A stretch of 58,914 nt of DNA. It comes from a virus (taxonomy: Duplodnaviria; Caudoviricetes). Position 1 is the first letter of the stretch. Each line of letters begins with the position of its first letter. This document shows, piece after piece, positions 7,228 through 57,945 of the stretch. The stretch covers positions 1 to 58,914 of IMG/VR virus record IMGVR_UViG_3300031565_014856; one strand, 5' to 3'. The translations under genes were made by a program, and so were the position numbers. The notes beneath the pieces were generated by a model. That model searched no databases. It was given only the letters and a program-made list of their open reading frames with translations, and had not been told where the DNA came from.

Positions 7228-7875
7228 TTATTCATATAAATGAGAATAGAATTCTTCTACAACCACCCCAGAATCATCAAATTCCAAAAGTACATCATTA
7301 ACATCTTCAGCGATTGCTCGTGTTCCTTCAATGAATATTCTCGTTTCATACCCAAAATACGCGGCATCTTTTGCCGTATCTTTAACGCAGTAATCAAGAG
7401 CGAGCCCAACAATGTCCACAGCTCTAACTCCCTTTTCGATTAGGAATTCATGGAGCCCAGTATTTTCATGACCATCTCCAAACGCTCCATACGGGTGGCA
7501 GTGGCTTTCAATTCCTTTCTTGATGATATAAAATTCTCCGTTTATTAAACTAAAGTCAATATCATCATGTAACTCAGCCCCTTTTGTATTCTGTACACAA
7601 TGTATAGGCCATAGAACTTCAGGCTTCCCGTGTATCTCCATCTCTTCAAACGGCTTCTTCCCCGCGTGCGATGCCGCGAAATAGATATTATCCGGTTTGT
7701 GCCAATCTTTCGTAAAAATAACGAGGTCATATTTTGGTAGTAATTCATTTATCACTGGAACTATCTTATCTCCTTCTTTCACAGCTAACGCTCCGCCCAT
7801 CCCGTTATCGTAATCTTCTTTACTTGCGGGCATAAAATCATACTGTGCGTCAACCACTATCAGTGCTTTCTTCAT
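7228..7875 (-). CDS. pncA: nicotinamidase
   Basis: ALIVVDAQYDF, DWH, WPIHCVQ, GLALDYCV (catalytic Cys). Confidence 0.92.
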   Translation of the reverse strand: MKKALIVVDAQYDFMPASKEDYDNGMGGALAVKEGDKIVPVINELLPKYDLVIFTKDWHKPDNIYFAASHAGKKPFEEMEIHGKPEVLWPIHCVQNTKGAELHDDIDFSLINGEFYIIKKGIESHCHPYGAFGDGHENTGLHEFLIEKGVRAVDIVGLALDYCVKDTAKDAAYFGYETRIFIEGTRAIAEDVNDVLLEFDDSGVVVEEFYSHLYE

Positions 7876-7920: not shown

Positions 7921-8223
7921 TTAGTTTTCATTATCAAACGTAAATTCTTCATTACAGTGCGGACACAACCACGTTTCTTTCCATGTGTATAATGGTTCCG
8001 GGGCAATGGCGTATTTGCTGATAATGTGAGTGTGGTGACCACTTACGTGTTCTATCTTTGGATAGTATTCAGGCGGTACGGGTAATTCAGTTTCTACGAT
8101 ATCATCGTGGCACAAATCAAACACCTGTTTTCCATTATCGTCTAACCGATAATACGTGCCATCAAATTCGGCTTCATCCCATCCGCATTGTGGGCAATTA
8201 TATTGCTCTAAGTTAAACTCCAT
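7921..8223 (-). CDS. hypothetical Zn-ribbon protein
   Basis: CPQC...CPHC; probable start at ATG 8223. Confidence 0.55.
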   Translation of the reverse strand: MEFNLEQYNCPQCGWDEAEFDGTYYRLDDNGKQVFDLCHDDIVETELPVPPEYYPKIEHVSGHHTHIISKYAIAPEPLYTWKETWLCPHCNEEFTFDNEN

Positions 8224-9037
8224 CAATTGCAGATTTTGGTATGTTAAAGGGGTTATTCCTTTTAAACTCAGTTCGATGGTATCTTTGAAGAACCGGATCA
8301 TCTAAATCGCCAATTCCCGATGCAAGGTGAGACTGTAATCTTAAATCGACGAGTTTGTATCCATCTCTTGAAGATCCCTCCCATGTTGGTAAAATTTGGT
8401 CAAGATCAGTCTTTGAAATTCCAAGACCATCAGTTGCCTGGCATTCAATACATTCTTTTAGGGCTTTTTTCTGGAAATCAAATTCTGATTCATTTTCCAT
8501 GATCCAATCTGCCATTTCATAAACCTCAGTTTTCCAGAGGTTCTGAATCATTCCATAATCCCCAACATCTCCATGCAACGTCCAAAAACCAAGAAGATAT
8601 TCCGTATAATTATCTGTTGATAAAACCATACCTTTATGAATTTGCGCCAAATCATAAAGATAAATCATCCGTAAACGAGCCTTAATGTTTCCCCTGCGAA
8701 TCTTCTCGTTGGGTTCTTCAACGTCCCATCCCTCTGGTCCGGTTACTCCCCATATGCTCGTAAAGGCTGATCCCAATTCATATACATCATCAAATGTATG
8801 GCAAAAAGCTTTTCCAACCAGTTCTCCTCGATCTACTTCATCAATTCCATTTCCAAGAGTGATGCTTCGCCCATGCAATTGGATTCCCAATTCGTCGCAT
8901 ACGGGTTTTGCTAATGCAGCACATAGCGTACTGTCAATCCCACCAGATATTCCCATTACAAGGGATTGAATTTTGTTTTTTTCAATGTAACTTTTTAATT
9001 CTGCCCTGATGTTTTGTGTTGCTTTTTCGTAGTTCAT
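8213..9037 (-). CDS. nadE: NH3-dependent NAD+ synthetase
   Basis: GISGGIDS, NIKARLRM, STDN, GFWTLHGD, KTEVY. Confidence 0.93.
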   Translation of the reverse strand: MNYEKATQNIRAELKSYIEKNKIQSLVMGISGGIDSTLCAALAKPVCDELGIQLHGRSITLGNGIDEVDRGELVGKAFCHTFDDVYELGSAFTSIWGVTGPEGWDVEEPNEKIRRGNIKARLRMIYLYDLAQIHKGMVLSTDNYTEYLLGFWTLHGDVGDYGMIQNLWKTEVYEMADWIMENESEFDFQKKALKECIECQATDGLGISKTDLDQILPTWEGSSRDGYKLVDLRLQSHLASGIGDLDDPVLQRYHRTEFKRNNPFNIPKSAIDGV

Positions 9038-12415: not shown

Positions 12416-14092
12416 TTATATCTCGATAGCGTTTATAGCATCGATGACTTCGTTGATATTTACTTCCATTTGTGGAATTTTTTCGTAAATATCTTGAGTG
12501 TATCCGTAAAGACGGAATACCTTTTGTCCACCCTTTATAGGAGCGGTTGTTGAATATCCAACAACATCAATCAAGTAAACGTATGGGGTTCCAAACTTGT
12601 TTACATACTTCTTGAAGTTGTCTTCAACTCTACTGTATCCATCTTGCATGTCAGAGATTATTACAACTCTGTCATACTGAGTGTTATTATCTGCGAACAG
12701 ATTGAAGCAAGACGCAAAGTCAGTACCGTGACTACACTTTCCGTTGTAAGAAGTAAACTTCTTCTTCAGAGTGTTAACAGAATCAGTTGGGTTCCATCCA
12801 GTAATCTTTTCAGACCATGATGCAAAGTGATAAACATCACCTCCGATGCCCTTTGCAAAAGTAGCGGCAACTAGTGCAGCCTTCTCAGCAGGGGTTGAGC
12901 TGGATCTCTTACCACCTGGAAGCGCAACGCCTCTACCAGTCATAGAACCAGATGTATCGAATACAACTGCAGTTCTACCTTCAGGAAGCAATTCCTTAAG
13001 GTTTGGAATGGAAGCTTCATACGCCTTTCCAAGCGCATCGGCAACCTTAGCCAATTGACGACCGTTGAATTCAAGAAGCATAACTTCAAGAGCAAGGTCA
13101 ATTTGGTGTGGCCATACAAGTGACTTCTTAATGAACTTAGGTTCAATAAGCAATTCACACGCAGCATCCAATAGAGGAGTATCATTAGTCTTAAGAATGT
13201 TTCTCAAGTTACGAAGCAATGCCAAGTAACCAATCTTCTTAGTCTTGATAAGTTCCGCATAGTTTTCAGTCTTTTGTTCAACGAGAACCTTTTCAGCTTC
13301 CGCCTTAGTGATTTCGCCTGACTTAACTGCTTCTGCAACCTTCTTACCAGTTTCAGTGTTCTTATCTTCAACAGTATTGAACTGCTTTAGGATTCCAAGA
13401 ACAAGAGCACGAAGTGCAGGAACTCTTACAGTTCCTTCAACAACTTCGTTGAATGTGTCCTTTTCGAACTTTGTACCAACAATAGCCTTGATGTAATCTG
13501 CAGTTGGTACATCAACGTAGCCATTCTTTTCAGTTGGAACTGGGTGAACAGCGTTAACGATGTCAACCAAACTCAAAGTGCTAGACTTCATTTGGTACTT
13601 AGCAAGTTCGTACGCATCAGCGTTTTCAATAGCGCCCTTGAAACCTCTCTTCATGGCACCTGGAATGGTATTGGTCTTATTCTTCGCACGGTAGCACGCA
13701 AGAATTTCCATCATATCGTCAAGACGATAGATTATACCACCTTCGTTGCCCTTACGGTTTCTCTTAGAGAAGAATCTCTTTCCAAGTTCATCACCAGAAA
13801 GGTGAGGCAATAGATTAACCGCTCCAACGTGGGTAACGGATCTTTGACCGAATACGCTACGTGCATAGACGAGTGCCTTTGCAGCAAAGAGCTTATCTTT
13901 CTTCGCGATGGTATCAATAACTTCGCGCAAACGAGTTTCGCGTTCTGATTCCTTTTCATAAAAGGTATTCTGGATTCCTGTGGATAGGATTCCTACGAGT
14001 TCATGTTCTGGTCTTTGGGTTTGACCGGATCCACCTTGGTGAGTAGTAGTCTTTTGAACTACAGGTTCTCTCTTTTGATTGTACTTAGACAT
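12416..14092 (-). CDS. Ro60/Rsr-like TROVE-domain RNA-binding protein with C-terminal vWA domain
   Basis: N-terminal NTFYE, ALVYARSVFGQRS, LAKY, ALLRNLRN; vWA MIDAS DTSGSM, GTD, IISDMQ. Confidence 0.88.
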   Translation of the reverse strand: MSKYNQKREPVVQKTTTHQGGSGQTQRPEHELVGILSTGIQNTFYEKESERETRLREVIDTIAKKDKLFAAKALVYARSVFGQRSVTHVGAVNLLPHLSGDELGKRFFSKRNRKGNEGGIIYRLDDMMEILACYRAKNKTNTIPGAMKRGFKGAIENADAYELAKYQMKSSTLSLVDIVNAVHPVPTEKNGYVDVPTADYIKAIVGTKFEKDTFNEVVEGTVRVPALRALVLGILKQFNTVEDKNTETGKKVAEAVKSGEITKAEAEKVLVEQKTENYAELIKTKKIGYLALLRNLRNILKTNDTPLLDAACELLIEPKFIKKSLVWPHQIDLALEVMLLEFNGRQLAKVADALGKAYEASIPNLKELLPEGRTAVVFDTSGSMTGRGVALPGGKRSSSTPAEKAALVAATFAKGIGGDVYHFASWSEKITGWNPTDSVNTLKKKFTSYNGKCSHGTDFASCFNLFADNNTQYDRVVIISDMQDGYSRVEDNFKKYVNKFGTPYVYLIDVVGYSTTAPIKGGQKVFRLYGYTQDIYEKIPQMEVNINEVIDAINAIEI

Positions 14093-14166: not shown

Positions 14167-14205
14167 GTAATCCAAATAATCGTAATAAAATGGAATATAA
14201 AGTTA

Positions 14206-14293
14206 GTCGAGAAAATTGGTGAGAGTTTTTCTGTCTGGCTTTCGCCTGATCTTTCTTATGGTTGAAACGAAGTATCTCTTACCTTACTACAAC
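14206..14293 (-). ncRNA. Y-RNA-like motif RNA copy 1 (TROVE leader)
   Basis: GUUG-UAGUAA-GGUAAGAG-AUACUUCG...CUCUCACC-AAUUUUCU-CGAC; motif shared with four other loci. Confidence 0.75.
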
Positions 14294-14327
14294 AGTGCTT
14301 TTCAATATTTTAAAGAACAAAAATTTT

Positions 14328-14392
14328 GTTGAGAAAATTGAGCAGAGTATTTTTTCATTTTTCCTACGAAGTAACTCTATTCTTACTACAAC
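14328..14392 (-). ncRNA. Y-RNA-like motif RNA copy 2 (minimal)
   Basis: GUUG-UAGUAA-GAAUAGAG-UUACUUCG...CUCUGCUC-AAUUUUCU-CAAC. Confidence 0.75.
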
Positions 14393-14495
14393 TAAATTTT
14401 ATATTGGTAAATATATACCAAGTTTCGCTTCTGCGAAAATATTTTTTGTTAATTTTTTGTTAAGATTCAATTTATATATAGAATCCCATTTTTAC

Positions 14496-16002: not shown

Positions 16003-16019
16003 TCACATCCTTCTGGTCG

Positions 16020-16093
16020 CGATCCCAGCGGGACTCGAACCCGCGACGCTTGCTTTTAGAGAGCAACGCTCTGACCAACTGAGCTATGGGACC
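16020..16093 (-). tRNA. amber suppressor tRNA (anticodon CUA)
   Basis: Full cloverleaf: GGTCCCA/TGGGATC acceptor, anticodon arm TTGCT-CTCTAAA-AGCAA, T-loop TTCGAGT. Confidence 0.88.
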
Positions 16094-22490: not shown

Positions 22491-22571
22491 AGGTAGTTAA
22501 ATTTAACAATACAGTCTAACCCACGATCGTTGCTGCAACTGCACCCCATTCAGCTTTTGGGTGTTAAATAG

Positions 22572-22789
22572 AGACGGGGGACGGATTCGAACCGCCGACC
22601 TCCAGGTTGTTGTACTTCCTCCTTACCTTCAAATCTCTTTTTTACAATTACCAGGGAGCGACCCCAGATCAAGCAAAATGACCTAAATGATGATTTATCA
22701 GAAGTATCGATACCCATACTTAAAGCTTAATGCATGCTCTTTAAGATGTCATCGATCCTGACGCTCTGTCCGGGCTGAGCTACCCCGCC
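22572..22789 (-). ncRNA. tRNA-like RNA whose anticodon loop is replaced by 150 nt
   Basis: intact acceptor GGCGGGG/CCCCGTC, D arm, anticodon stem TCAGG/CCTGG and T arm; loop spans 22607-22756. Confidence 0.75.
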
Positions 22790-22972
22790 ATTCGTATTTC
22801 AGAACTCCAGAACGGAGCACCGTGGAACCTTTCCTCACTTTCATAAATATCGGTCTACCACACATTTGGGTAACAACTCCCAATGCGAACTGTTTCGTCT
22901 GCCCAGGTTGCCTTAACGGCTGGCTTACTTATCAGTTCAGGCTATTAACAACACAACAAAGAACGTTAACTG

Positions 22973-24056: not shown

Positions 24057-24261
24057 ATATCTCGTTCAACACACCAAGTATTCATTTTCATTCCAATGTT
24101 AAACCAAACGTCAACGTCGGTTTGAGTGTTGGCATTTTGAATCCTCTTGCAAATAAAATCGGCTATTTTTTGAAGAATCTTTGTTTTCATTATGTGTTGT
24201 TTTGTTAATCTGAGGCTAATATAACCATAATTACCGAAACGAGAAAATTTTTAATTAAAAA

Positions 24262-24379
24262 AGTAGAGAAAATTTAAGAGTGTATTGAGGATTTGAACCC
24301 CGTGTCCCGAAGGACGCCTGTTTTTCAGACAAGTGTGTATACCAATTTCACGATGAAACACTACTTAGTTACTACTACT
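24262..24379 (-). ncRNA. Y-RNA-like motif copy 3 replacing the acceptor stem of a type II tRNA body (anticodon GAA)
   Basis: AGUAG-UAGUAA-...UUUCAUCG + D arm + CUUGU-CUGAAAA-ACAGG + variable arm + T arm + CACUCUUA-AAUUUUCU-CUACU. Confidence 0.8.
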
Positions 24380-24383
24380 ATTG

Positions 24384-24468
24384 TGGAACCAAGAGGACTC
24401 GAACCTCCGACCTCTGGTATTTCACACCAGCGCTCTACGCGTATTGCTACCATCTGAGCTACGGTTCC
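24384..24468 (-). tRNA. atypical tRNA-Phe(GAA) with enlarged D-loop and G32
   Basis: D-loop contains GTA-GCAA-TAC hairpin; loop GTGAAAT. Confidence 0.75.
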
Positions 24469-24547
24469 ATAAAGACGAGGAAAACCCTAAAGTTTATTAC
24501 GATGAGAAGTCTGCCACCAAAAAGGCAGCCACAACAACCCGTCAGTG

Positions 24548-24620
24548 TGGGGAGAGGCAGAATCGAACTGCCGACACATGGATTTTCAGTCCATTGCTCT
24601 ACCAACTGAGCTACCTCCCC
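24548..24620 (-). tRNA. tRNA-Phe(GAA)
   Basis: canonical cloverleaf; loop CTGAAAA. Confidence 0.93.
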
Positions 24621-24624
24621 ATAG

Positions 24625-24704
24625 TGGGATGAGACGGAGTCGAACCATCACAGCCAAGGCGGGGGTTTTACAGACCCTTGGGCTCACCCATGCCCAGCCA
24701 TCCC
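24625..24704 (-). tRNA. tRNA-Tyr(GUA), divergent
   Basis: loop CTGTAAA; variable arm; D stem GGGC/GCCC. Confidence 0.8.
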
Positions 24705-25327: not shown

Positions 25328-25412
25328 TGACCTCGGAGAGACTCGAACTCTCACTCCCTTAACGGGAACTAGGGCCTAAACCTAGCGCGTCTACCAATTC
25401 CGCCACGAGGCC
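25328..25412 (-). tRNA. tRNA-Leu(UAG)
   Basis: cloverleaf; loop TTTAGGC; variable arm. Confidence 0.9.
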
Positions 25413-26860
25413 AGATGTCTTGGTACAGAAGGAGGAATGATATCTATGAATGTTTCAAACACAGATATTATCACTCTTTTGTACCTTGTTAAAGATGGAT
25501 TTCCATTGTCTGTTACTGATAATATTATGTGTATCTCTGTATTTTCTGCATCTAACGGAATGTTCACATATGATTGTTGAGATGTTGGATTGTCTATCGT
25601 CACATTTCCATTATATGTTCCTGGCTCTTTATAATACCACCATTCGTAACTTAAAACATCTCCATCAGGATCGGTTGCAGTTGATGATAGGTTTATTACA
25701 TCTCCTTTAAACGCATCAATGTATAAAATTTCATTATCCACTATCGGAGGGTGATTAACATTTTCATATGAAGGTGTCAAGCTCCAATCCATCATAGCCG
25801 CAAATTCATTTTGAAAAGGTTCCCACCACCTAAATATTGTTGCATATTTGCTTGTGTATCCGTTCCATGTATCTTCAGCCGGTCCATACATATAATATGG
25901 ATCAAAATCACTTTCTGCATATTCCCTTTGTCTTGGGGGTCCTAAATTAAGATAAGACCGTATACCTGTGACTGGAACTTTTGTTGAACGTCCACCCCAA
26001 CTCCCGTGCCAAGGTTGTTCAGGATCATTAAGTCCATTGTTTACTAAGTATAACAAAACTGGAGTATCTCCTTCTTTTAAATATCTTCTCGGAGGATACA
26101 TTGCACCTAAAACTCCATGACTTCTTACATTGTTATTTGCCCATTCATCACTAGCAAAGGAAGGATCACCTTTCGCGCATTCTCCACAAAAAGGATAAAA
26201 ATAAAGTTGTTCATCTGCTATGGGATCCATTGCACAAAACATATTGTCCCATCTTAAATACCAAAGATCTGGATAATGAGAGGCATCCATCAACCAAGCA
26301 CCACTATCATCTTGACCAGCATTATCTAATACTCTTAATTTACTTACAGCATTATTAACTGCGTCAACCCCTTCAGTTTTTCTTATGTGTTCCAACGCCT
26401 GAGCTAAAACGGCTCCATCGCCCCATATACTTATCCAAATCGGTCTATCATCATCTCTATTGATTGCATCTATTATTATTTGAGCTCCATCTGAAATAGG
26501 TTCTTCATTTAATGCATAAGCAGTACCATAGTCTGCAGGGCCAAGTGCTGTTACCGATCTTAATGATTCAGGAGAAGGATACCCATTTGCATGAACAGAT
26601 AGGTTAGGTAAAACGATTTCATAAGCATCTATCACATCGTAAATAGGTTCCACAAACCTGTAACGCATATTGTGAGAGCATGTAGCTACCAATCCTTCGA
26701 TGTCAAACATATATGAATATGTCATTAGTCTGACTAAGCTCATCGCATCATCTGTTTCTTTATTGGGATCAATGTTTGGGTCTGCCAAAACAATTAATCG
26801 GTGTTGGCCAGAAACAAATACTGCTATGAATAAAAATAAAATTATGAGGAACGATCTCAT
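25391..26860 (-). CDS. secreted DUF1593 / nucleoside-hydrolase-like protein with Ig-like C-terminal domain
   Basis: signal peptide from ATG 26860; ETDDAMSLVRL, RPIWISIWG, QDDSG, EGDTP, SWGGR, DPDGD..YEWW. Confidence 0.8.
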   Translation of the reverse strand: MRSFLIILFLFIAVFVSGQHRLIVLADPNIDPNKETDDAMSLVRLMTYSYMFDIEGLVATCSHNMRYRFVEPIYDVIDAYEIVLPNLSVHANGYPSPESLRSVTALGPADYGTAYALNEEPISDGAQIIIDAINRDDDRPIWISIWGDGAVLAQALEHIRKTEGVDAVNNAVSKLRVLDNAGQDDSGAWLMDASHYPDLWYLRWDNMFCAMDPIADEQLYFYPFCGECAKGDPSFASDEWANNNVRSHGVLGAMYPPRRYLKEGDTPVLLYLVNNGLNDPEQPWHGSWGGRSTKVPVTGIRSYLNLGPPRQREYAESDFDPYYMYGPAEDTWNGYTSKYATIFRWWEPFQNEFAAMMDWSLTPSYENVNHPPIVDNEILYIDAFKGDVINLSSTATDPDGDVLSYEWWYYKEPGTYNGNVTIDNPTSQQSYVNIPLDAENTEIHIILSVTDNGNPSLTRYKRVIISVFETFIDIIPPSVPRHLASWRNW

Positions 26861-26876
26861 TTTTATTTTATTTATT

Positions 26877-26952
26877 TGGTCGAGGTGGCCGGGCTCGAAC
26901 CGACGGCCCCGTGCTCCCAAAGCACGTAATCTACCAACTGATCTACACCTCG
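26877..26952 (-). tRNA. tRNA-Pro(UGG), CCA encoded
   Basis: cloverleaf; loop TTTGGGA. Confidence 0.92.
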
Positions 26953-27013
26953 AAAATATGGCAGCCAACCCGCCTAATGCAGGCACTTACCATAAAAAAT
27001 TAGCTAATTTTTG

Positions 27014-27086
27014 TCGGGGTGGCCGGGCTCGAACCGACGACCTCCTGGTCCCAAACCAGGCACGCTACCAACTGCGCTACACCCCG
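27014..27086 (-). tRNA. tRNA-Pro(UGG)
   Basis: cloverleaf; loop TTTGGGA. Confidence 0.92.
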
Positions 27087-27101
27087 TTTTGTAGTCTTTC
27101 C

Positions 27102-27195
27102 CACTGTCACTCATCTCGACCAACGGTCACGGGAATCGAACCCGTACCTATACCCCTAATGGGTAGTGACTTGCCATTTGTCCATTCCGGCAGTG
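27102..27195 (-). ncRNA. tRNA-like element with defective acceptor stem (loop CATTAGG)
   Basis: good T arm ACGGG-TTCGATT-CCCGT and D arm; outer stem CACTG/CAGTG. Confidence 0.5.
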
Positions 27196-27421: not shown

Positions 27422-27550
27422 TGGTGGGGAAGGTTGGAGTTGAACCAACTGACTTTAGTATTTCAAACTAACGTTTAACCGATGAAACTCTATGCGTTAC
27501 TATGAAGAAATTCAAGAAAATTGCGAGAGCATTTTTAAAACTTCTTCCCC
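27422..27550 (-). ncRNA. tRNA(GAA)-like RNA with Y-RNA-like motif copy 5 inserted in the D-loop, CCA encoded
   Basis: acceptor GGGGAAG/CTTCCCC-A-CCA; D-loop holds CUCUCGC-AAUUUUCU-UGAA[UUUC]UUCA-UAGUAA-CGCAUAGAG-UUUCAUCG; anticodon loop TTGAAAT. Confidence 0.8.
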
Positions 27551-27554
27551 ATTG

Positions 27555-27627
27555 TTGACCCTCCAGGGCTCGAACCCGGACTCTTGTGGACCAAAACCAC
27601 ACGTGTTACCAATTACACTAAGGGTCA
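27555..27627 (-). tRNA. tRNA-Gln(UUG)
   Basis: cloverleaf; loop TTTTGGT. Confidence 0.92.
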
Positions 27628-27666
27628 ATTTGCACGTCTTTCCGTGCTGTCAATCATTTCGATCCC

Positions 27667-27779
27667 AAATGGATGTTTACCGCTTACACTAATTGAACTT
27701 TAACGACAATGCTAATGATGCATTGTGCGGTTCAATGATGGATTCGAACCATCCTCCCATTATTTTGAGATGTCCATTC
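27667..27779 (-). ncRNA. circularly permuted tRNA-like RNA opened at the anticodon loop (YrlA-like topology)
   Basis: order: GAATGG, variable arm, T arm GATGG-TTCGAAT-CCATC, ATTGAAC, hairpin linker, GTTCAAT, D arm, CCATTT. Confidence 0.7.
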
Positions 27780-27781
27780 AG

Positions 27782-27854: not shown

Positions 27855-27861
27855 ATTACAA

Positions 27862-27996
27862 ACTGAGAAAATTGACTAGAGATATTTTATCGTGCTACCA
27901 ATTACACTAATCCCGCATAAACATGGAGCGGGACCCAGGATTCGAACCTGGACTAATCGTTCCCAAAACGAAGTAACTCTTGGTCGTTACTACAGT
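27862..27996 (-). ncRNA. Y-RNA-like motif copy 4 enclosing a circularly permuted tRNA-Pro-like module
   Basis: ACUG-UAGUAA-...UUACUUCG, loop UUUGGGA, T arm, GUCCCGC-U-CCA-linker-GCGGGAU, D arm, CUCUAGUC-AAUUUUCU-CAGU. Confidence 0.82.
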
Positions 27997-28002
27997 CTAT
28001 AG

Positions 28003-37437: not shown

Positions 37438-38007
37438 TTATCTCTTCGCCCAGGGCAACCGTGTAATAAAATCATAATAGGATCGAATTATTTGATCGTG
37501 ACCCCACGCCCAATCGTAATGATGCAAATCTTCAATGTGTACCCATTTCATTTTTCCTACTTCTCCTTCAATCTCGTTATTATCAGCGTGTAATACAGGA
37601 AACCACCTTTGTTTAGTGTATAAACCATATCTCAGTGATACATTTTGTTTATTGTTATCGGTGGGATTTGTTTGAACGTGCCATGGTTGATCGATGTTAA
37701 CGCTATAAACCTGAATAGCGTCCTCAATCATATTGGATATATTGATGCCAACTTCTTCCCAGGTTTCCCGTATGAGCGCATCTGTACCTGATTCATCATA
37801 ATCAAGATATCCAGCGACGTTATTCCATAATCCGATATTATCTGCCGCATTTTTACCTCGTTCAGAAACAAGTGCGTATGGTCCTGGACTATCAAAATCT
37901 ATAACATCTATAAGTATTACACCATTGACAGCAACGCTTCTGCTTTCCCAGATTATTCTTCCGTCTTTAACTTTGTGCCATTTATTTGGCGTATTATTGA
38001 ATGTCAT
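37438..38007 (-). CDS. NUDIX hydrolase
   Basis: GYLDYDESGTDALIRETWEEVGI Nudix box. Confidence 0.85.
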   Translation of the reverse strand: MTFNNTPNKWHKVKDGRIIWESRSVAVNGVILIDVIDFDSPGPYALVSERGKNAADNIGLWNNVAGYLDYDESGTDALIRETWEEVGINISNMIEDAIQVYSVNIDQPWHVQTNPTDNNKQNVSLRYGLYTKQRWFPVLHADNNEIEGEVGKMKWVHIEDLHHYDWAWGHDQIIRSYYDFITRLPWAKR

Positions 38008-39302
38008 ACGTCTCTCCCTTCATTATAAATTGCTTTTACTGTTGGAAACCTTAAACTTATTTCTCCGTGTTGATTTACGGTTTCTTCAAAATATTGAACC
38101 GTTATTTCCTTGCCCACAATTCTGTCAGGGTATTTGTAGAAATACTGGCGTTGTTCAATTGAAAATCCAGATCCAACCGAAACTGGGTATCCTTTATGTT
38201 CTATCCAGACACTCCTGACCATATCCTCGGTGACCTCCAGGCCGTCAACTATGATCCTAAATGGACCAATATCAATGTCCTGTACAATGTACTCGGCGTC
38301 AAAAAACTGCTTACATTTAAGAAGATTGTTTGATCTCTTTCCCTCATATGGAGCGTCCTTACGTATCATAATTCCTTCCCATCCATTCTTTTGGGCCATT
38401 GTATTTAGTTCGGTCAAGTGTTCACCTGACTCAACTTTCCATTGTTCAACGTGGCTAAGAACATCTCCATAATAATTATCCATCATAAACCTGATAAACT
38501 TTTGTCTTTCTGATGAAATTTGAGAGCTGTACTTCTTTTGAAAATGATCAAGATCTAACAAATCAAATATCTTAAACCGGGGATTTTGAATGGTGTGATC
38601 TTTTTTATTGTATTCCTTTAAGATAGCCTGGAAATCTTCGTCTCCGTTTTCGTTTACTATACATAATTCACCATCAAGCACAGTATCTATTAAATTTAAA
38701 GGTAACAATGCTTCTTTTACTTTATCAAGTGTAAGAAATTCATTACCGTTTCGAGAGTATGCTTTGATGCTTCCGTCGTGATCGATAATTACAATACATC
38801 GAACTCCATCAAGTTTCCTACTAGCATACCAAGTATCCTTTTTAAAATCCACCTTCTTCACCATCTTCTCATCATACTTATTTGCCAACGCGACATCAAA
38901 TGTAGGAATAAGATCAGGGAAAACTTTGTTTATGATTTTCTCAGACACCCTCGTTTTAAGGTTACGATCAAATATATTAAGAATGATTTCTTTATATTCA
39001 ATATTATCTCTGATAAATGCATTGACATCGGCAATAGCTTCGTGCCCCGTTATTCTTCTATTTCCAAGATCGTCCAATAAATCTAGAATATCTTCATGAG
39101 ATTGACGTGATACCAAATCAGATCTTTTGATTATATTCTTTGGGGTTACATAATATTGTACGAATGGGTTATGAGTAGCTTTCAAAATGGCCTTTATGAA
39201 TTCTGTATCATATTCAGGCTTTGAAAGTGTAGCAGTTTTTTCGAGTGTTGAATTCGAAACATTGAGCTCATCAATGAGCTGTTTGAGAAGATTAAATTCC
39301 AT
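38004..39302 (-). CDS. ATP-dependent DNA ligase
   Basis: KLDGVR, LDGE, EGIMIR, LLKCK, VGSGFS, SLRFP. Confidence 0.93.
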   Translation of the reverse strand: MEFNLLKQLIDELNVSNSTLEKTATLSKPEYDTEFIKAILKATHNPFVQYYVTPKNIIKRSDLVSRQSHEDILDLLDDLGNRRITGHEAIADVNAFIRDNIEYKEIILNIFDRNLKTRVSEKIINKVFPDLIPTFDVALANKYDEKMVKKVDFKKDTWYASRKLDGVRCIVIIDHDGSIKAYSRNGNEFLTLDKVKEALLPLNLIDTVLDGELCIVNENGDEDFQAILKEYNKKDHTIQNPRFKIFDLLDLDHFQKKYSSQISSERQKFIRFMMDNYYGDVLSHVEQWKVESGEHLTELNTMAQKNGWEGIMIRKDAPYEGKRSNNLLKCKQFFDAEYIVQDIDIGPFRIIVDGLEVTEDMVRSVWIEHKGYPVSVGSGFSIEQRQYFYKYPDRIVGKEITVQYFEETVNQHGEISLRFPTVKAIYNEGRDV

Positions 39303-40398
39303 ATCTTTGTTTTCTTATTTTTAGTAACAGATCATCTAAAAGTTCTTGATCTATGTCTTTTGGTAAATCACATTCATCATAAACCTTATCGAGTTCTTCG
39401 ATCATCGCCTCTGCTTCTTTAACGAGTTTGTCATATTCATATTCTCCTCGTCTTATCTCCATAAGAATTTTTATTTCTTCATCGGGTCTGCGAACGTTGA
39501 TAAATTTGATCTTTGGGATTTCCAATGCAACATTCAAAAGACGAAATGTATGCATCATATTTTTGGAATCGTAATTTTTTCCGTGAGACTTATTCATCTT
39601 AACACGATCAGGGTTTCTTTCTTTCAGCCACGTTTGATATTCCTTATATCTTTTGCAATGTGTTGAGTACGCGTCCTTATTAAATATAAGGTATCCAATA
39701 ACCATTAATCCTTTGGGAATGGAAGTTAACTGTACATCATTTGCTGTAACAGGATCAGAAACTATGCCGCTTCCTTCGTGTCTACGGTGAAGTTGATACA
39801 TTGCATAAACATCATGTGCGTGGTCAACTTTTGCTAAACCAAAATCTCTTTGATCTATAGTATCTAACGTTCCAGATTGGTAGTACCTGTTAAAGTATTC
39901 ATTAAGAGTGATTGAACCTCCTTCTTGAAGAACATAACAGAAGTCCAATACATTCTTACGAGTCATCTGTGATTCTTCCCAGTTCATCTTCTTGTTATAC
40001 CCTTTGGCCTTTTTGATTTGATCGATAGCATATCCAGCAAAGGAGTAACGACACGTTTTCGTTAGAAATTTTGATGCGTGATAAGAAATGGATCCCCATT
40101 CTGTAGAATCGTGTTGAACACAATCTTCCGGGGCAAAAAGCAGTTCAAGAACTGTTGGGTTGTTTGTGCGAACAAGAGCAAGAAATCTACTAAGTTCGTA
40201 GTAGACGATATCATTTAAGTCGTCTGCAACCTGCTCAACATACCCATGTTTGAGTATGTCTTCCAACGGTTGCACAAAAACTCCTCGCAAATCTGTGTCG
40301 GATGTCGGTAACGATGTCCCATATGCATGGGATCCCATTATTGCTTCGAAGATAATTAAATCTTCGTCTTTTAAATATTGTATCGTGTAGTTTTTCAT
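39292..40398 (-). CDS. Pol-beta superfamily nucleotidyltransferase
   Basis: GSHAYGTSLPTSDTDLRG, NPTVLELL, YDSKNMMHTFRL. Confidence 0.8.
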   Translation of the reverse strand: MKNYTIQYLKDEDLIIFEAIMGSHAYGTSLPTSDTDLRGVFVQPLEDILKHGYVEQVADDLNDIVYYELSRFLALVRTNNPTVLELLFAPEDCVQHDSTEWGSISYHASKFLTKTCRYSFAGYAIDQIKKAKGYNKKMNWEESQMTRKNVLDFCYVLQEGGSITLNEYFNRYYQSGTLDTIDQRDFGLAKVDHAHDVYAMYQLHRRHEGSGIVSDPVTANDVQLTSIPKGLMVIGYLIFNKDAYSTHCKRYKEYQTWLKERNPDRVKMNKSHGKNYDSKNMMHTFRLLNVALEIPKIKFINVRRPDEEIKILMEIRRGEYEYDKLVKEAEAMIEELDKVYDECDLPKDIDQELLDDLLLKIRKQRYGI

Positions 40399-55747: not shown

Positions 55748-56911
55748 ATGAAGTACATGCTTACATATGAGGATGGACAAGAAGTCTGCAAACACTACAA
55801 GAACTTCAATTTTTCTGAACACCAATTTCGAATAAGAGGTTTTAAAGTGTCTACGTTTGATTATTTCATATGTGGTTATAACGATTTCGCGAAGCCCCTT
55901 CCACACAAGTCCGAAGTGAATGCGTTTGATATGAGGGGTGTGACGTTCGTCTTTAATAAAGATGGAACTTTGTGGAATAAATTCTTCATGTTGCCAAAGT
56001 TCTTCAACCTGAATCAAATCGAGGAAACTCAATATCTTAAGGTAAAAGATAAGAAGATCAAACACATTTCTTGTAAGGAAGACGGATCATTGGTAACATT
56101 CATGATGACTCCTGACGAAAAGCTGTTTTCCAAGACCATAAGAGGATTTGATAACGATCAGGCGGTGGCTGCCATGAATTTACTTGGCGCATGGGAAGAA
56201 CGTATGATATGGGTGAAAACTCTTCTTCGACAGGGACTAACCCCGTTGTTTGAATACGTGTCTTGGGATAACAGAATCGTTCTAAAATATTCTAAGCCAC
56301 AGTTGAGATTCATTGGGGTAAGAGATAGTTACAATGGAATGTTCTTTCCTGCCTCTGAGATGAACCAGGCTTACATCCCTGAAGGTGTATATGTTATACC
56401 CAAGGTAGATGCGACTCTCGATGAGTTGATTGAGTTATCTAAGACCGAGGAGAACATTGAAGGATGGGTTGTGATATTCGAAGATGGTACCATGATCAAG
56501 ATCAAGACCCTGTGGTACTTTAACATACACGGTGTGAGAACCGAAAGCATCTTTAGAGAGGATTACATCATTAAGAATTATTATGAAGAAACACTGGATG
56601 ATGTGTTGGCGCAGTTGGATCCAAATGAAGACAAAGATGCGTTTGATTTTGTTAACGTGGTAACACACGCCATTGATAAGTATTCTAATCACATTGATGA
56701 ATGTGTAGAGGAAATGGCGAACCAATTGAATTTGAATTATAATGAAGATTGGAGCAAATTTGCCACAGAAATGCACAAGAAACCATACTTCCAATATGTA
56801 AAATTTTGGATACAGGATAAGAATGAATACAAGAAGCGTAAGATAGAAAATGTGTTGGCACTTACGTATAGATTAAAAAGAGCCCAACAAATAGTGGAAA
56901 AATGGAAATAG
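55748..56911 (+). CDS. T4 Rnl1-like RNA ligase
   Basis: PKFFNLNQ, KEDGSL (motif I), FEYVSWDNRIV, EGWV, KIKT.WY. Confidence 0.88.
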   Translation: MKYMLTYEDGQEVCKHYKNFNFSEHQFRIRGFKVSTFDYFICGYNDFAKPLPHKSEVNAFDMRGVTFVFNKDGTLWNKFFMLPKFFNLNQIEETQYLKVKDKKIKHISCKEDGSLVTFMMTPDEKLFSKTIRGFDNDQAVAAMNLLGAWEERMIWVKTLLRQGLTPLFEYVSWDNRIVLKYSKPQLRFIGVRDSYNGMFFPASEMNQAYIPEGVYVIPKVDATLDELIELSKTEENIEGWVVIFEDGTMIKIKTLWYFNIHGVRTESIFREDYIIKNYYEETLDDVLAQLDPNEDKDAFDFVNVVTHAIDKYSNHIDECVEEMANQLNLNYNEDWSKFATEMHKKPYFQYVKFWIQDKNEYKKRKIENVLALTYRLKRAQQIVEKWK

Positions 56912-57945
56912 TGGTTTTAAATAGAGATGACTTTCGTAACGGTGTTTTCGAACGCGATGGTTACCAATGTGTGATTTGTAAAGAACCCGCTGTTGATGCT
57001 CACCACATCATGGAAAGACGATTGTTTGCCAATGGTGGATACTTTCTTGATAATGGTGCATCGCTCTGTGAGAAGCATCACCTTGAAGCAGAAATGACTA
57101 CTTTAGATTGTGATACCATACGTTCTGCCGCGGGCATAACGCGCGTTATATTACCAGACCATCTCTATACCGAAGTGGAATATGATAAGTGGGGTAACGA
57201 AATACTTAAAAGCGGTGAGCGATTGCAAGGAGAATTGTTTAATGATGAATCAGTTCAAAAGATACTTAAACAAGGAAACGTACTTGGTGATTTTACAAAC
57301 AGAATCAAATATCCAAGAACGTATCACTTACCTTGGTCTCCAGGGATGAATAGGGATGATCGAATGATGACAGATGTGGGTATATTTGATGGCCAACAAG
57401 TGATGATATGTGAGAAACTTGATGGAGAAAACACGACCTGGTATAAAGATCACATGCACGCAAGATCAATAAATACAGATTCACACCCATCAAGAAATTG
57501 GGTAAAGAATTTATGGGCCCAAAAGGCGTACAATATTCCTGATGGGTGGAGAGTGTGTGGCGAGAATTTGTTTGCAAAACACGCCATACATTATGCTGAA
57601 GAAAACGGAAACGCCCTTAAAACATTTTTCTATATGTTCTCTATATGGGACGAAAGAAATGTGTGTTTAAGTTGGAAAGAAACAAAAGAATGGGCGGAAC
57701 TGTTAGAACTTGATTTAGTCCCAGTTTATTACGAAGGAGTTTACGATGAAGATGTAATAGAAAGGATTAATAAAACCATGGAACAAAATCCAGGAACTGT
57801 TGAGGGATATGTAATTCGTTTAACGAGGGAATATCACTATTCAGAGTTCAGGAATGTTTGTGGGAAATACGTAAGAAAAAACCACGTCCAAAACAACCAC
57901 GGACATTGGGCCCAACAAAAAATAACAAAGAATGAGCTCATATAG
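56902..57945 (+). CDS. RNA ligase with N-terminal HNH-like domain
   Basis: N-term RDGYQCVIC..DAHHI..NGASLC..HH; ligase KYPRTYHLPWS, EKLDGEN, GEN, EGYVIR, KYVR. Confidence 0.85.
   Translation: MEIVVLNRDDFRNGVFERDGYQCVICKEPAVDAHHIMERRLFANGGYFLDNGASLCEKHHLEAEMTTLDCDTIRSAAGITRVILPDHLYTEVEYDKWGNEILKSGERLQGELFNDESVQKILKQGNVLGDFTNRIKYPRTYHLPWSPGMNRDDRMMTDVGIFDGQQVMICEKLDGENTTWYKDHMHARSINTDSHPSRNWVKNLWAQKAYNIPDGWRVCGENLFAKHAIHYAEENGNALKTFFYMFSIWDERNVCLSWKETKEWAELLELDLVPVYYEGVYDEDVIERINKTMEQNPGTVEGYVIRLTREYHYSEFRNVCGKYVRKNHVQNNHGHWAQQKITKNELI

Follow-up and report, generated by a model that had tools for sequence, protein, structure and literature searches.

The stretch of DNA analysed here (the window) is the whole of the IMG/VR virus record IMGVR_UViG_3300031565_014856, which has 58,914 bases and an estimated completeness of 15% and so represents part of a very large phage. 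Nearly all of its genes lie on the minus strand, and a transfer RNA (tRNA) array at 16-28 kb comprises 18 ARAGORN calls and 18 Rfam tRNA matches, the latter being all of the matches found in the window at the Rfam gathering thresholds (18/18). The element in question lies in this array, on the minus strand at 24262-24379, and consists of a tRNA body whose acceptor side continues into a stem module with two conserved motifs. This RNA is real and conserved and is not a dead tRNA gene. Further along the same strand the window encodes a TROVE/Ro60-like protein, and two short RNAs with the same module were found directly upstream of its gene. The coordinates of these features, together with those of a set of RNA repair genes, are given in Table 1.

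Table 1. Parts of the RNA at 24262-24379, the Ro60-like gene with its upstream RNAs, and the RNA repair genes (window coordinates; motifs in RNA letters, 5' to 3').
Feature	Coordinates	Strand	Basis
Whole RNA, 118 nt: stem module and tRNA body	24262-24379	(-)	Sequence, covariance-model matches, covariation
Helix I, 5' strand AGUAG; partner 24262-24266 (CUACU)	24375-24379	(-)	RNAfold; double changes in all 6 helix I pairs among relatives
Conserved 5' motif UAGUAAC	24368-24374	(-)	Invariant in 8/8 sequences (alignment A1); found, with variants, in every module RNA
Short helix H2, 5' strand UAAG; partner 24275-24278 (CUUA)	24364-24367	(-)	RNAfold; double changes among relatives
Acceptor-like helix II, 5' strand AGUGUUU; partner 24279-24285 (AUACACU)	24356-24362	(-)	RNAfold
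Linker CAUC; final UC at the place of tRNA positions 8-9	24352-24355	(-)	
D arm GUG-AAAUUGGUAUA-CAC, 3-bp stem, GG in loop	24335-24351	(-)	Sequence; among relatives first pair invariant, other two vary
Anticodon arm CUUGU-CUGAAAA-ACAGG; anticodon GAA at 24324-24326	24317-24333	(-)	Double changes in all 5 pairs (alignment A6)
Long variable arm GUCC-UUCG-GGAC, 4-bp stem	24304-24315	(-)	Sequence, RNAfold
T arm GGGG-UUCAAAU-CCUC	24287-24301	(-)	Sequence, RNAfold; double changes in all 4 pairs among relatives
Conserved 3' motif AAUUUUCU	24267-24274	(-)	Sequence, alignments
Run of U, directly 3' of helix I	24256-24261	(-)	Sequence
Y-like RNA 1, same module, upstream of Ro gene	14326-14394	(-)	
Y-like RNA 2, same module, upstream of Ro gene	14204-14295	(-)	
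TROVE/Ro60-like gene, 558 residues, presumed protein partner	12416-14092	(-)	Pfam, PDB, full-length similarity
ATP-dependent ligase	38004-39302	(-)	
RlaP 'RNA repair pathway' nucleotidyltransferase	39292-40398	(-)	
Rnl1-like RNA ligase	55748-56911	(+)	
Rnl2-like RNA ligase	56902-57945	(+)	

The tRNA-order arms reported for this RNA in a first-pass annotation, made by a model from the sequence and its open reading frames (ORFs), were all confirmed by direct reading: the D, anticodon, variable and T arms follow one another, with the ends of the RNA at the acceptor side, and RNAfold gives a cloverleaf atop a long interrupted stem. The bases that make tertiary contacts in tRNAs (U8, GG, UUC and A58) are all retained, and the GG of the D loop, a T loop of the form UUCRANY and an anticodon loop of 7 nt that includes U33 and a purine at position 37 are likewise present. 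The 5' motif can pair with AAUUUUCU as A-U, G-C, U.U, A-U and A-U, a pairing based on sequence reading and, for the AG/CU pairs, on RNAfold, with both strands being invariant and covariation thus uninformative. The ends had been described as forming this motif instead of an acceptor; the motif ends are indeed there, but the acceptor is not simply replaced, as helix II forms six of seven pairs when slipped by two bases, with CA bulging before U8, whereas the normal acceptor register gives only three of seven. Since this slipped helix also extends unbroken into the motif stem, the acceptor is remodelled and extended and not simply missing. As a tRNA, the RNA was not among the 18 ARAGORN calls in the window and scored 22.1 bits (E = 0.3) with the Rfam tRNA model (RF00005), without reaching the gathering score of 29; no 7-bp acceptor was found that is in register both with U8 and with the T stem and has a discriminator and a free 3' end. 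With 118 nt (80-130 being expected), an end-formed stem containing a conserved helix and a separate effector module, it does have the architecture of a Y RNA.

Taken singly, the fold is weak (z = -1.99, with 12 of 200 shuffles as good; z = -0.80 for the 251-nt context) and the 8-mer AATTTTCT by itself is not enriched (16 found versus 11.9 expected), so that the case against chance rests on the homologues, the covariation and the strain variants. The U run that follows helix I is likely to mark 3' end formation, and comparable U runs follow many relatives of the RNA; the terminator scan did not call it, and terminator-like sites in the window were not above shuffles (8 versus 5.3). Promoter-like sites did not exceed shuffles either (19 versus 16.7), and the one at 24202-24231 is on the plus strand, opposite to the RNA, so the proposal that this RNA is the first after a promoter is not supported.

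The pattern of the D arm and anticodon loop led to one other giant-phage contig (L002, 322 kb), which keeps the whole RNA; its anticodon stem, its helix I and its acceptor-like helix have all changed in a compensatory way. Three of the five anticodon-stem pairs differ from those of the window on both sides, a G-C pair of helix II is A-U in L002, and the variable arm reads GGCC-GAAA-GGCU. A second pattern scan gave 12 stretches, seven of which, in six contigs, were true relatives; the other five (L014, L015, L016, L020 and L024) lack a matching 3' half and were discarded, L016 being uncertain and the rest resembling coding sequence. A first covariance model, built from the two orthologues of the window and L002, recovered the pattern relatives and more, and a second, built from 13 relatives, recovered further members, including one from LR745206.1, a published phage genome of 635 kb. 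By blastn against GenBank phages, the region showed tRNA-level similarity only, and no record covered 80% of the query.

Covariation was evaluated in two alignments of these relatives. Alignment A4 (13 rows, 11 distinct) had 94.4% of cells paired and double changes in 23 of 29 pairs, which was equalled by none of 500 shuffles, and its covariation score was 0.587, compared with 0.073-0.127 when the partners were slid. Similarly, alignment A6, whose 18 rows (16 distinct) comprise 13 tRNA-bodied members, one whole tRNA inside the module and two permuted forms forced onto the model, had 93.9% of cells paired and double changes in 25 of 27 pairs (0/500 shuffles equal), with a score of 0.694 against 0.081-0.129 for slid partners. 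Of the 18 rows of A6 (16 distinct), all but L040 have a linker with UC at its end (17/18). The first-pass annotation had proposed that homologues without conserved arms would indicate a decaying pseudo-tRNA; in the covariance-model search the arms proved to be conserved.

Strain variants were obtained by placing the contigs of four soil metagenome runs on the region. A variant of about 91% identity, present in three soil runs, changes U13-A105 of H2 to A-U and U20-A99 of helix II to C-G, and a second variant contig is without U66 and A75, that is, without one whole pair of the variable stem. The triplet of the strain variants is UAG and probably UAA, which are Leu triplets, instead of GAA.

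The stem module was found with several forms of cargo. In the two Ro-adjacent RNAs it carries short loops, and at 27860-27998 (-) and elsewhere it carries a permuted tRNA domain in which a T arm, a closed acceptor hairpin, UA and a D arm follow each other with the connectivity of YrlA. At ~27422-27550 (-) the module is itself a closed hairpin, inserted between the acceptor and the D arm of a tRNA-like RNA that has the acceptor GGGGAAG/CUUCCCC, an encoded ACCA, the anticodon GAA and a T arm, and whose Rfam match (33.6 bits) is confined to model positions 9-63. The RNA at G002:3825-3971 is a circular permutation of this design, with the module open and the acceptor closed. The permuted and inserted-module forms of the window bear out the description of the RNA at 24262-24379 as a third grafting topology. 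A permuted tRNA-like RNA without the UAGUAAC module was also observed at 27628-27780 (-), and an element of about 40 bases (GRUCGARAUGAKUGACAG..GGAAAGAC) stands directly before tRNA-Gln (27554-27627) and tRNA-Pro (27013-27086), with copy coordinates of 27087-27126 (-) listed together with that permuted RNA.

The 13 distinct tRNA-bodied members have anticodon loops with GAA (two), UAA (two), UCU (two), CAA, UUU, UGU, UGA, AUA and AUU, and one is irregular; the loop pattern C-U-NNN-A-A was present in 12 of the 13. Whatever the anticodon (nine different ones), the 5' strand up to the D stem is common to all members and ends in UC at U8 and position 9. In bacteria, UGA and AUA anticodons would need bodies with a long arm. 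In the members with UGA and AUA, however, the variable loop is short, the RNA at 24262-24379 combines a long variable arm with GAA, and two members have an anticodon with A34. The shared 5' strand, the mismatch of body and anticodon, and the A34 argue against a decoding tRNA. When the body of the RNA was compared with the 19 tRNA and tRNA-like genes of the window, identities of 40/59 and 38/58 with tRNA-Leu and of 42/58 with tRNA-Gln did not clearly single out Leu, and the covariance model built from the RNA also matched the tRNA-Leu genes of the window at 25-36 bits. The body resembles the tRNA-Leu of the window in architecture, but in sequence the resemblance is only modest. It shares with class II tRNA-Leu and with tRNA-Phe(GAA) a 3-bp D stem, a loop of the AAUUGGUA kind, a long variable arm, a T loop and a 7-nt anticodon loop, but it has no acceptor in the normal register, and the Phe anticodon GAA sits on a Leu-type body.

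The protein encoded at 12416-14092 matched the Pfam TROVE family with 32.1 bits (cut-off 23) and the Ro60 of Thermus phage phiLo (PDB 9L5Y/9KOP) with an E value of 5.6e-15 over residues 241-545, and had 90-100% coverage against phage genes for a 'Ro-like RNA binding protein'. The two RNAs directly upstream of its gene, on the same strand, follow one plan: helix I, UAGUAAG facing CAAUUUUCU, a 3-bp helix, helix II and UACUUCG. Among eight viral loci with TROVE homologues (50-67% identity) the same RNA pair was present in six, the other two comprising one cut inside the second RNA and one with a divergent copy, and five of 17 metagenome loci had covariance-model matches of the Ro-adjacent kind. 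When 15 such RNAs (12 distinct) were aligned with MAFFT, without fitting to a model, 90.7% of cells were paired, with double changes in 8 of 17 pairs (0/500 shuffles equal) and a score of 0.332 against 0.053-0.092 when slid; further pair types were reached by 60 of the 500 shuffles. The module was also found upstream of the Ro gene of LR745206.1, whose protein is only 33% identical. For homologues between 33 and 67% identical, it precedes the gene where flanking DNA was read, and its place immediately ahead of the Ro gene, in the same orientation, is retained over protein identities of 85% to 33%. In record G003 a tRNA-bodied member, some 250 nt ahead of the Ro gene, takes the place of a Y RNA, and TROVE is encoded in all five of the larger records with module RNAs (the window, G001, G002, G003 and G004). 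A sequence-invariant helix between covarying helices has the appearance of a protein site, in the way that Ro sites in Y RNAs are described in 10.1101/312249. A TAnnTTTG-like box is conserved shortly before the first Y-like RNA (window ~14396-14430 (-), L006 and L009-L011); it presumably resembles the -7 element of Bacteroidota promoters and is a possible hint of the host.

Several further observations were made in and around the array. Only three bases separate the RNA at 24262-24379 from the preceding tRNA-like gene (24383-24468 (-)), which has a good 7-bp acceptor, the loop GUGAAAU (GAA) and about 12 additional D-loop bases, reaches 28.5 bits in Rfam (model positions 10-63) and has no ARAGORN call; counting this gene and the true tRNA-Phe at 24547-24620, the GAA triplet occurs in four RNAs of the window. 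An apparent tRNA gene at ~22545-22790 (-) is split by an insert of about 170 bases, its 5' half providing an acceptor strand, the D arm and the start of the anticodon stem and its distant 3' half the T arm and an acceptor strand, and no group I intron match was found there with Rfam at E values up to 10. A tRNA with the anticodon CUA, labelled 'Pyl' by ARAGORN, is present in the window (16019-16093 (-)) and in the related 322-kb phage L002 (3266-3339 (-)); it is possibly an amber suppressor, hinting at TAG being read as sense late in infection. The ORF at 25391-26986 (-) encodes 531 residues with an Sde182-type nucleoside hydrolase-like domain and as listed overlaps a tRNA-Pro at 26877-26952, its true start probably being further downstream. 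The window also encodes a set for nicotinamide adenine dinucleotide (NAD) salvage on the minus strand, consisting of a nicotinate phosphoribosyltransferase (1117-2289), an isochorismatase-family, nicotinamidase-like protein (7228-7875) and an NAD synthase (8213-9037).

Both bacteria and phages are known to have Y RNAs that contain tRNA-like domains. Their genes are described as preceding the Ro gene in the same orientation, and the RNAs as having the Ro site in an end-formed stem and tRNA-like effector domains (PMC4201824; 10.1101/312249). With slightly better than even confidence, the RNA at 24262-24379 is read as a Y-like RNA of the phage that would be associated with Ro60 and whose effector domain would be an acceptor-less tRNA mimic. 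The suggestion of a Ro-tethered tRNA mimic, already made in the first-pass annotation, gains real support, though by association and gene position only, namely the TROVE gene, the module upstream of Ro genes and the G003 member. The paired ends form the common module of the family and the presumed Ro60-binding site, built from a variable helix I, the invariant UAGUAAC/AAUUUUCU helix with its U.U mismatch, H2 and helix II, while the unpermuted tRNA body (U8, the D arm with GG, the 7-nt anticodon loop, the variable arm and the T arm) replaces the loose loops of ordinary Y RNAs. As helix II stands at the place of the acceptor and runs into the module, no free 3' end would be left for charging, and it is reasonable to infer that the RNA cannot be charged. 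Ro60 may hold and stabilise the RNA through the stem, and the exposed tRNA elbow and anticodon arm could then engage a protein that recognises tRNAs, such as a nuclease, a repair ligase, a modification enzyme or PNPase, with the RNA acting as a tether or decoy and taking no part in decoding. An RNA that keeps the L shape and the anticodon arm and has no chargeable end would be suited to occupying readers of tRNA shape outside translation.

Several observations weigh against this reading. The strongest covariation counts come from A4 and A6, which were fitted to the covariance model and thereby favour structure, although helix I in A6 is anchored gaplessly on the invariant motifs despite this fitting; applied to the raw MAFFT alignment A1, RNAalifold returned no more than 9 pairs, those of the anticodon arm and the T arm, which we attribute to misalignment of the 3' strands of the long-range helices. 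A distance of 10 kb separates the RNA, which is inside the tRNA array, from the TROVE gene downstream on its strand, and three small fragments with module RNAs have no TROVE gene, which is weak evidence as they are only 22-29 kb long and 6-7% complete. Orthologous variants with UAG or UAA suggest that the triplet itself may not matter. Additionally, GNCGAAN0-1G, given as the Ro-site motif of known bacterial Y RNAs in PMC4201824, is absent from the RNA, and none of five module RNAs matched Rfam YrlA (RF02553) at E values up to 10, nor any Y RNA or other family in permissive Rfam scans, the sole RF02553 match of the window (22.3 bits) falling on the tRNA-Phe/Tyr at 24596-24650.

The last two of these observations would suit a module that is selected but serves another factor, as a cassette for RNA processing or termination or as a site for an RNA ligase or nucleotidyltransferase, its proximity to Ro being incidental. 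Most copies do belong to tRNA arrays and finish with a U run, and RNA repair enzymes are encoded nearby. Such an incidental proximity fits poorly with the place directly upstream of the Ro gene being kept over the whole range of protein identity, which is the classic arrangement of Y RNA genes (10.1101/312249), and this explanation is considered unlikely.

A further observation against the reading as a Ro60-associated mimic is that the module encloses a whole tRNA with its own 7-bp acceptor at L021:1638-1768 (+) and G002:3328-3458 (-), with the anticodons UCU and UCA, respectively, the G002 copy having an encoded ACCA and being one that would read UGA. A module enclosing a complete tRNA would fit a role in tRNA maturation, and the RNA at 24262-24379 could likewise be an odd but working tRNA precursor, whose module leader and trailer are removed by RNase P and 3' processing and whose product receives CCA and decodes. 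The normal-register acceptor of L018:555-664 would pair at six of seven positions, the L002 orthologue is called as tRNA-Phe by ARAGORN, the tertiary-contact bases are kept, and the YrlA of M. smegmatis is cut by RNase P and receives CCA according to PMC4201824. What speaks against a precursor is the normal-register acceptor of the RNA itself, with its three pairs of seven and a helix that runs unbroken into the module, and the use of one 5' strand across nine anticodons, which fits synthetase identity poorly; to these are added the disagreement of body type and anticodon in several members, the A34 in two, the sub-threshold Rfam tRNA score and the silence of ARAGORN in the window. A working precursor is held to be slightly less probable than a module serving another factor. 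A decaying pseudo-tRNA(Leu) with a mutated anticodon, a ruined acceptor and no function, which the sub-threshold tRNA score, the weak fold z-score and the varying anticodon of close variants might suggest, was rejected on covariation as very improbable, since each helix shows compensatory changes, both among 13 distinct relatives and in the strains, the flanking motifs are invariant, C-U-NNN-A-A is kept in 12 of 13 anticodon loops, and the 40-60% divergence of the relatives excludes recent copies of one sequence.

Among known systems, the Yrn1 RNA of Deinococcus radiodurans, which is bound by Rsr (Ro60), is the nearest in connectivity to a Y-like RNA as read here, with its Ro-site end-stem at the place of the acceptor (PMC4201824; 10.1101/312249, compared by description only). 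Yrn1 also has a T arm, a stem-loop at the place of the anticodon arm between D-like and T arms, and a gene on the strand of the Ro gene, but its 'anticodon' loop has 6 nt, a variable arm and a full D arm are lacking, and its Ro site is animal-like. In the RNA at 24262-24379 the anticodon loop is a canonical one of 7 nt with U33, the D arm is full, the variable arm is long and the invariant stem motif is a different one; its location is a tRNA array. On these descriptions, it is a far more complete tRNA than Yrn1, with a different invariant stem and in a family that mixes several connectivities. YrlA (Salmonella, Mycobacterium and phage; RF02553), the role of which is given as unknown in 10.1101/312249, is alike in being associated with Ro60 and in having a tRNA-mimic effector domain and no free CCA end, and the window copy at 27860-27998 shares its order of T arm, closed acceptor and D arm. 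The two ends of YrlA come in on the side of the anticodon stem, its acceptor closes as a hairpin, and it lacks an anticodon loop (10.1101/312249); in all three respects the RNA at 24262-24379 is the reverse. Thermus phage phiLo (PMC12135203; PDB 9KOP, 9L5Y) has, like the window, a phage Ro60 with two Y-like RNA genes (Yrl1 and Yrl2) directly upstream; its RNAs were selected for an internal bulge containing CGAA, and the term 'tRNA-like' occurs 0 times in the text of PMC12135203, whereas the window has another motif and tRNA bodies. In full-text literature searches, whose scope did not extend to the phage Y RNA tables of PMC4201824, which may name phages that have related RNAs, no account of a phage Y RNA chimera bearing an anticodon was found.

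The two RNA ligases, RlaP and the ATP-dependent ligase are encoded in the same window as the Ro60-like gene, and as the Rnl1-like and Rnl2-like ligases and RlaP are tools of tRNA repair, a role of the Y-like RNA in a contest over tRNA cleavage would be plausible. As a tentative and rather doubtful extension, the family may be a panel of uncharged tRNA look-alikes held by Ro60, with different anticodons and at least three modes of joining, that would serve as protected baits for host enzymes attacking anticodon loops. Such baits could divert the attack from functional tRNAs or, on a Ro60 platform, offer the cut loop to the phage Rnl1 and Rnl2 ligases, and the quick change of the triplet among GAA, UAG and UAA in near-identical strains would then reflect an arms race.

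The family is a natural experiment in which one Ro-type stem module has been joined to tRNA bodies in several connectivities, with full anticodon loops of many identities and with closed or open acceptors, beside RNA ligases and large tRNA arrays, and it bears on the still-open question of what bacterial Y RNAs use their tRNA-like domains for. If Ro60 binds the module RNAs, the tRNA shape, and perhaps the anticodon arm, would be what the Ro particle shows its partner, and that partner could be found by pull-down. Under the same condition, a distinct Ro-site sequence would be added to the known ones, and tRNA finders would prove to overlook one class of tRNA-derived RNAs in the tRNA arrays of phages.

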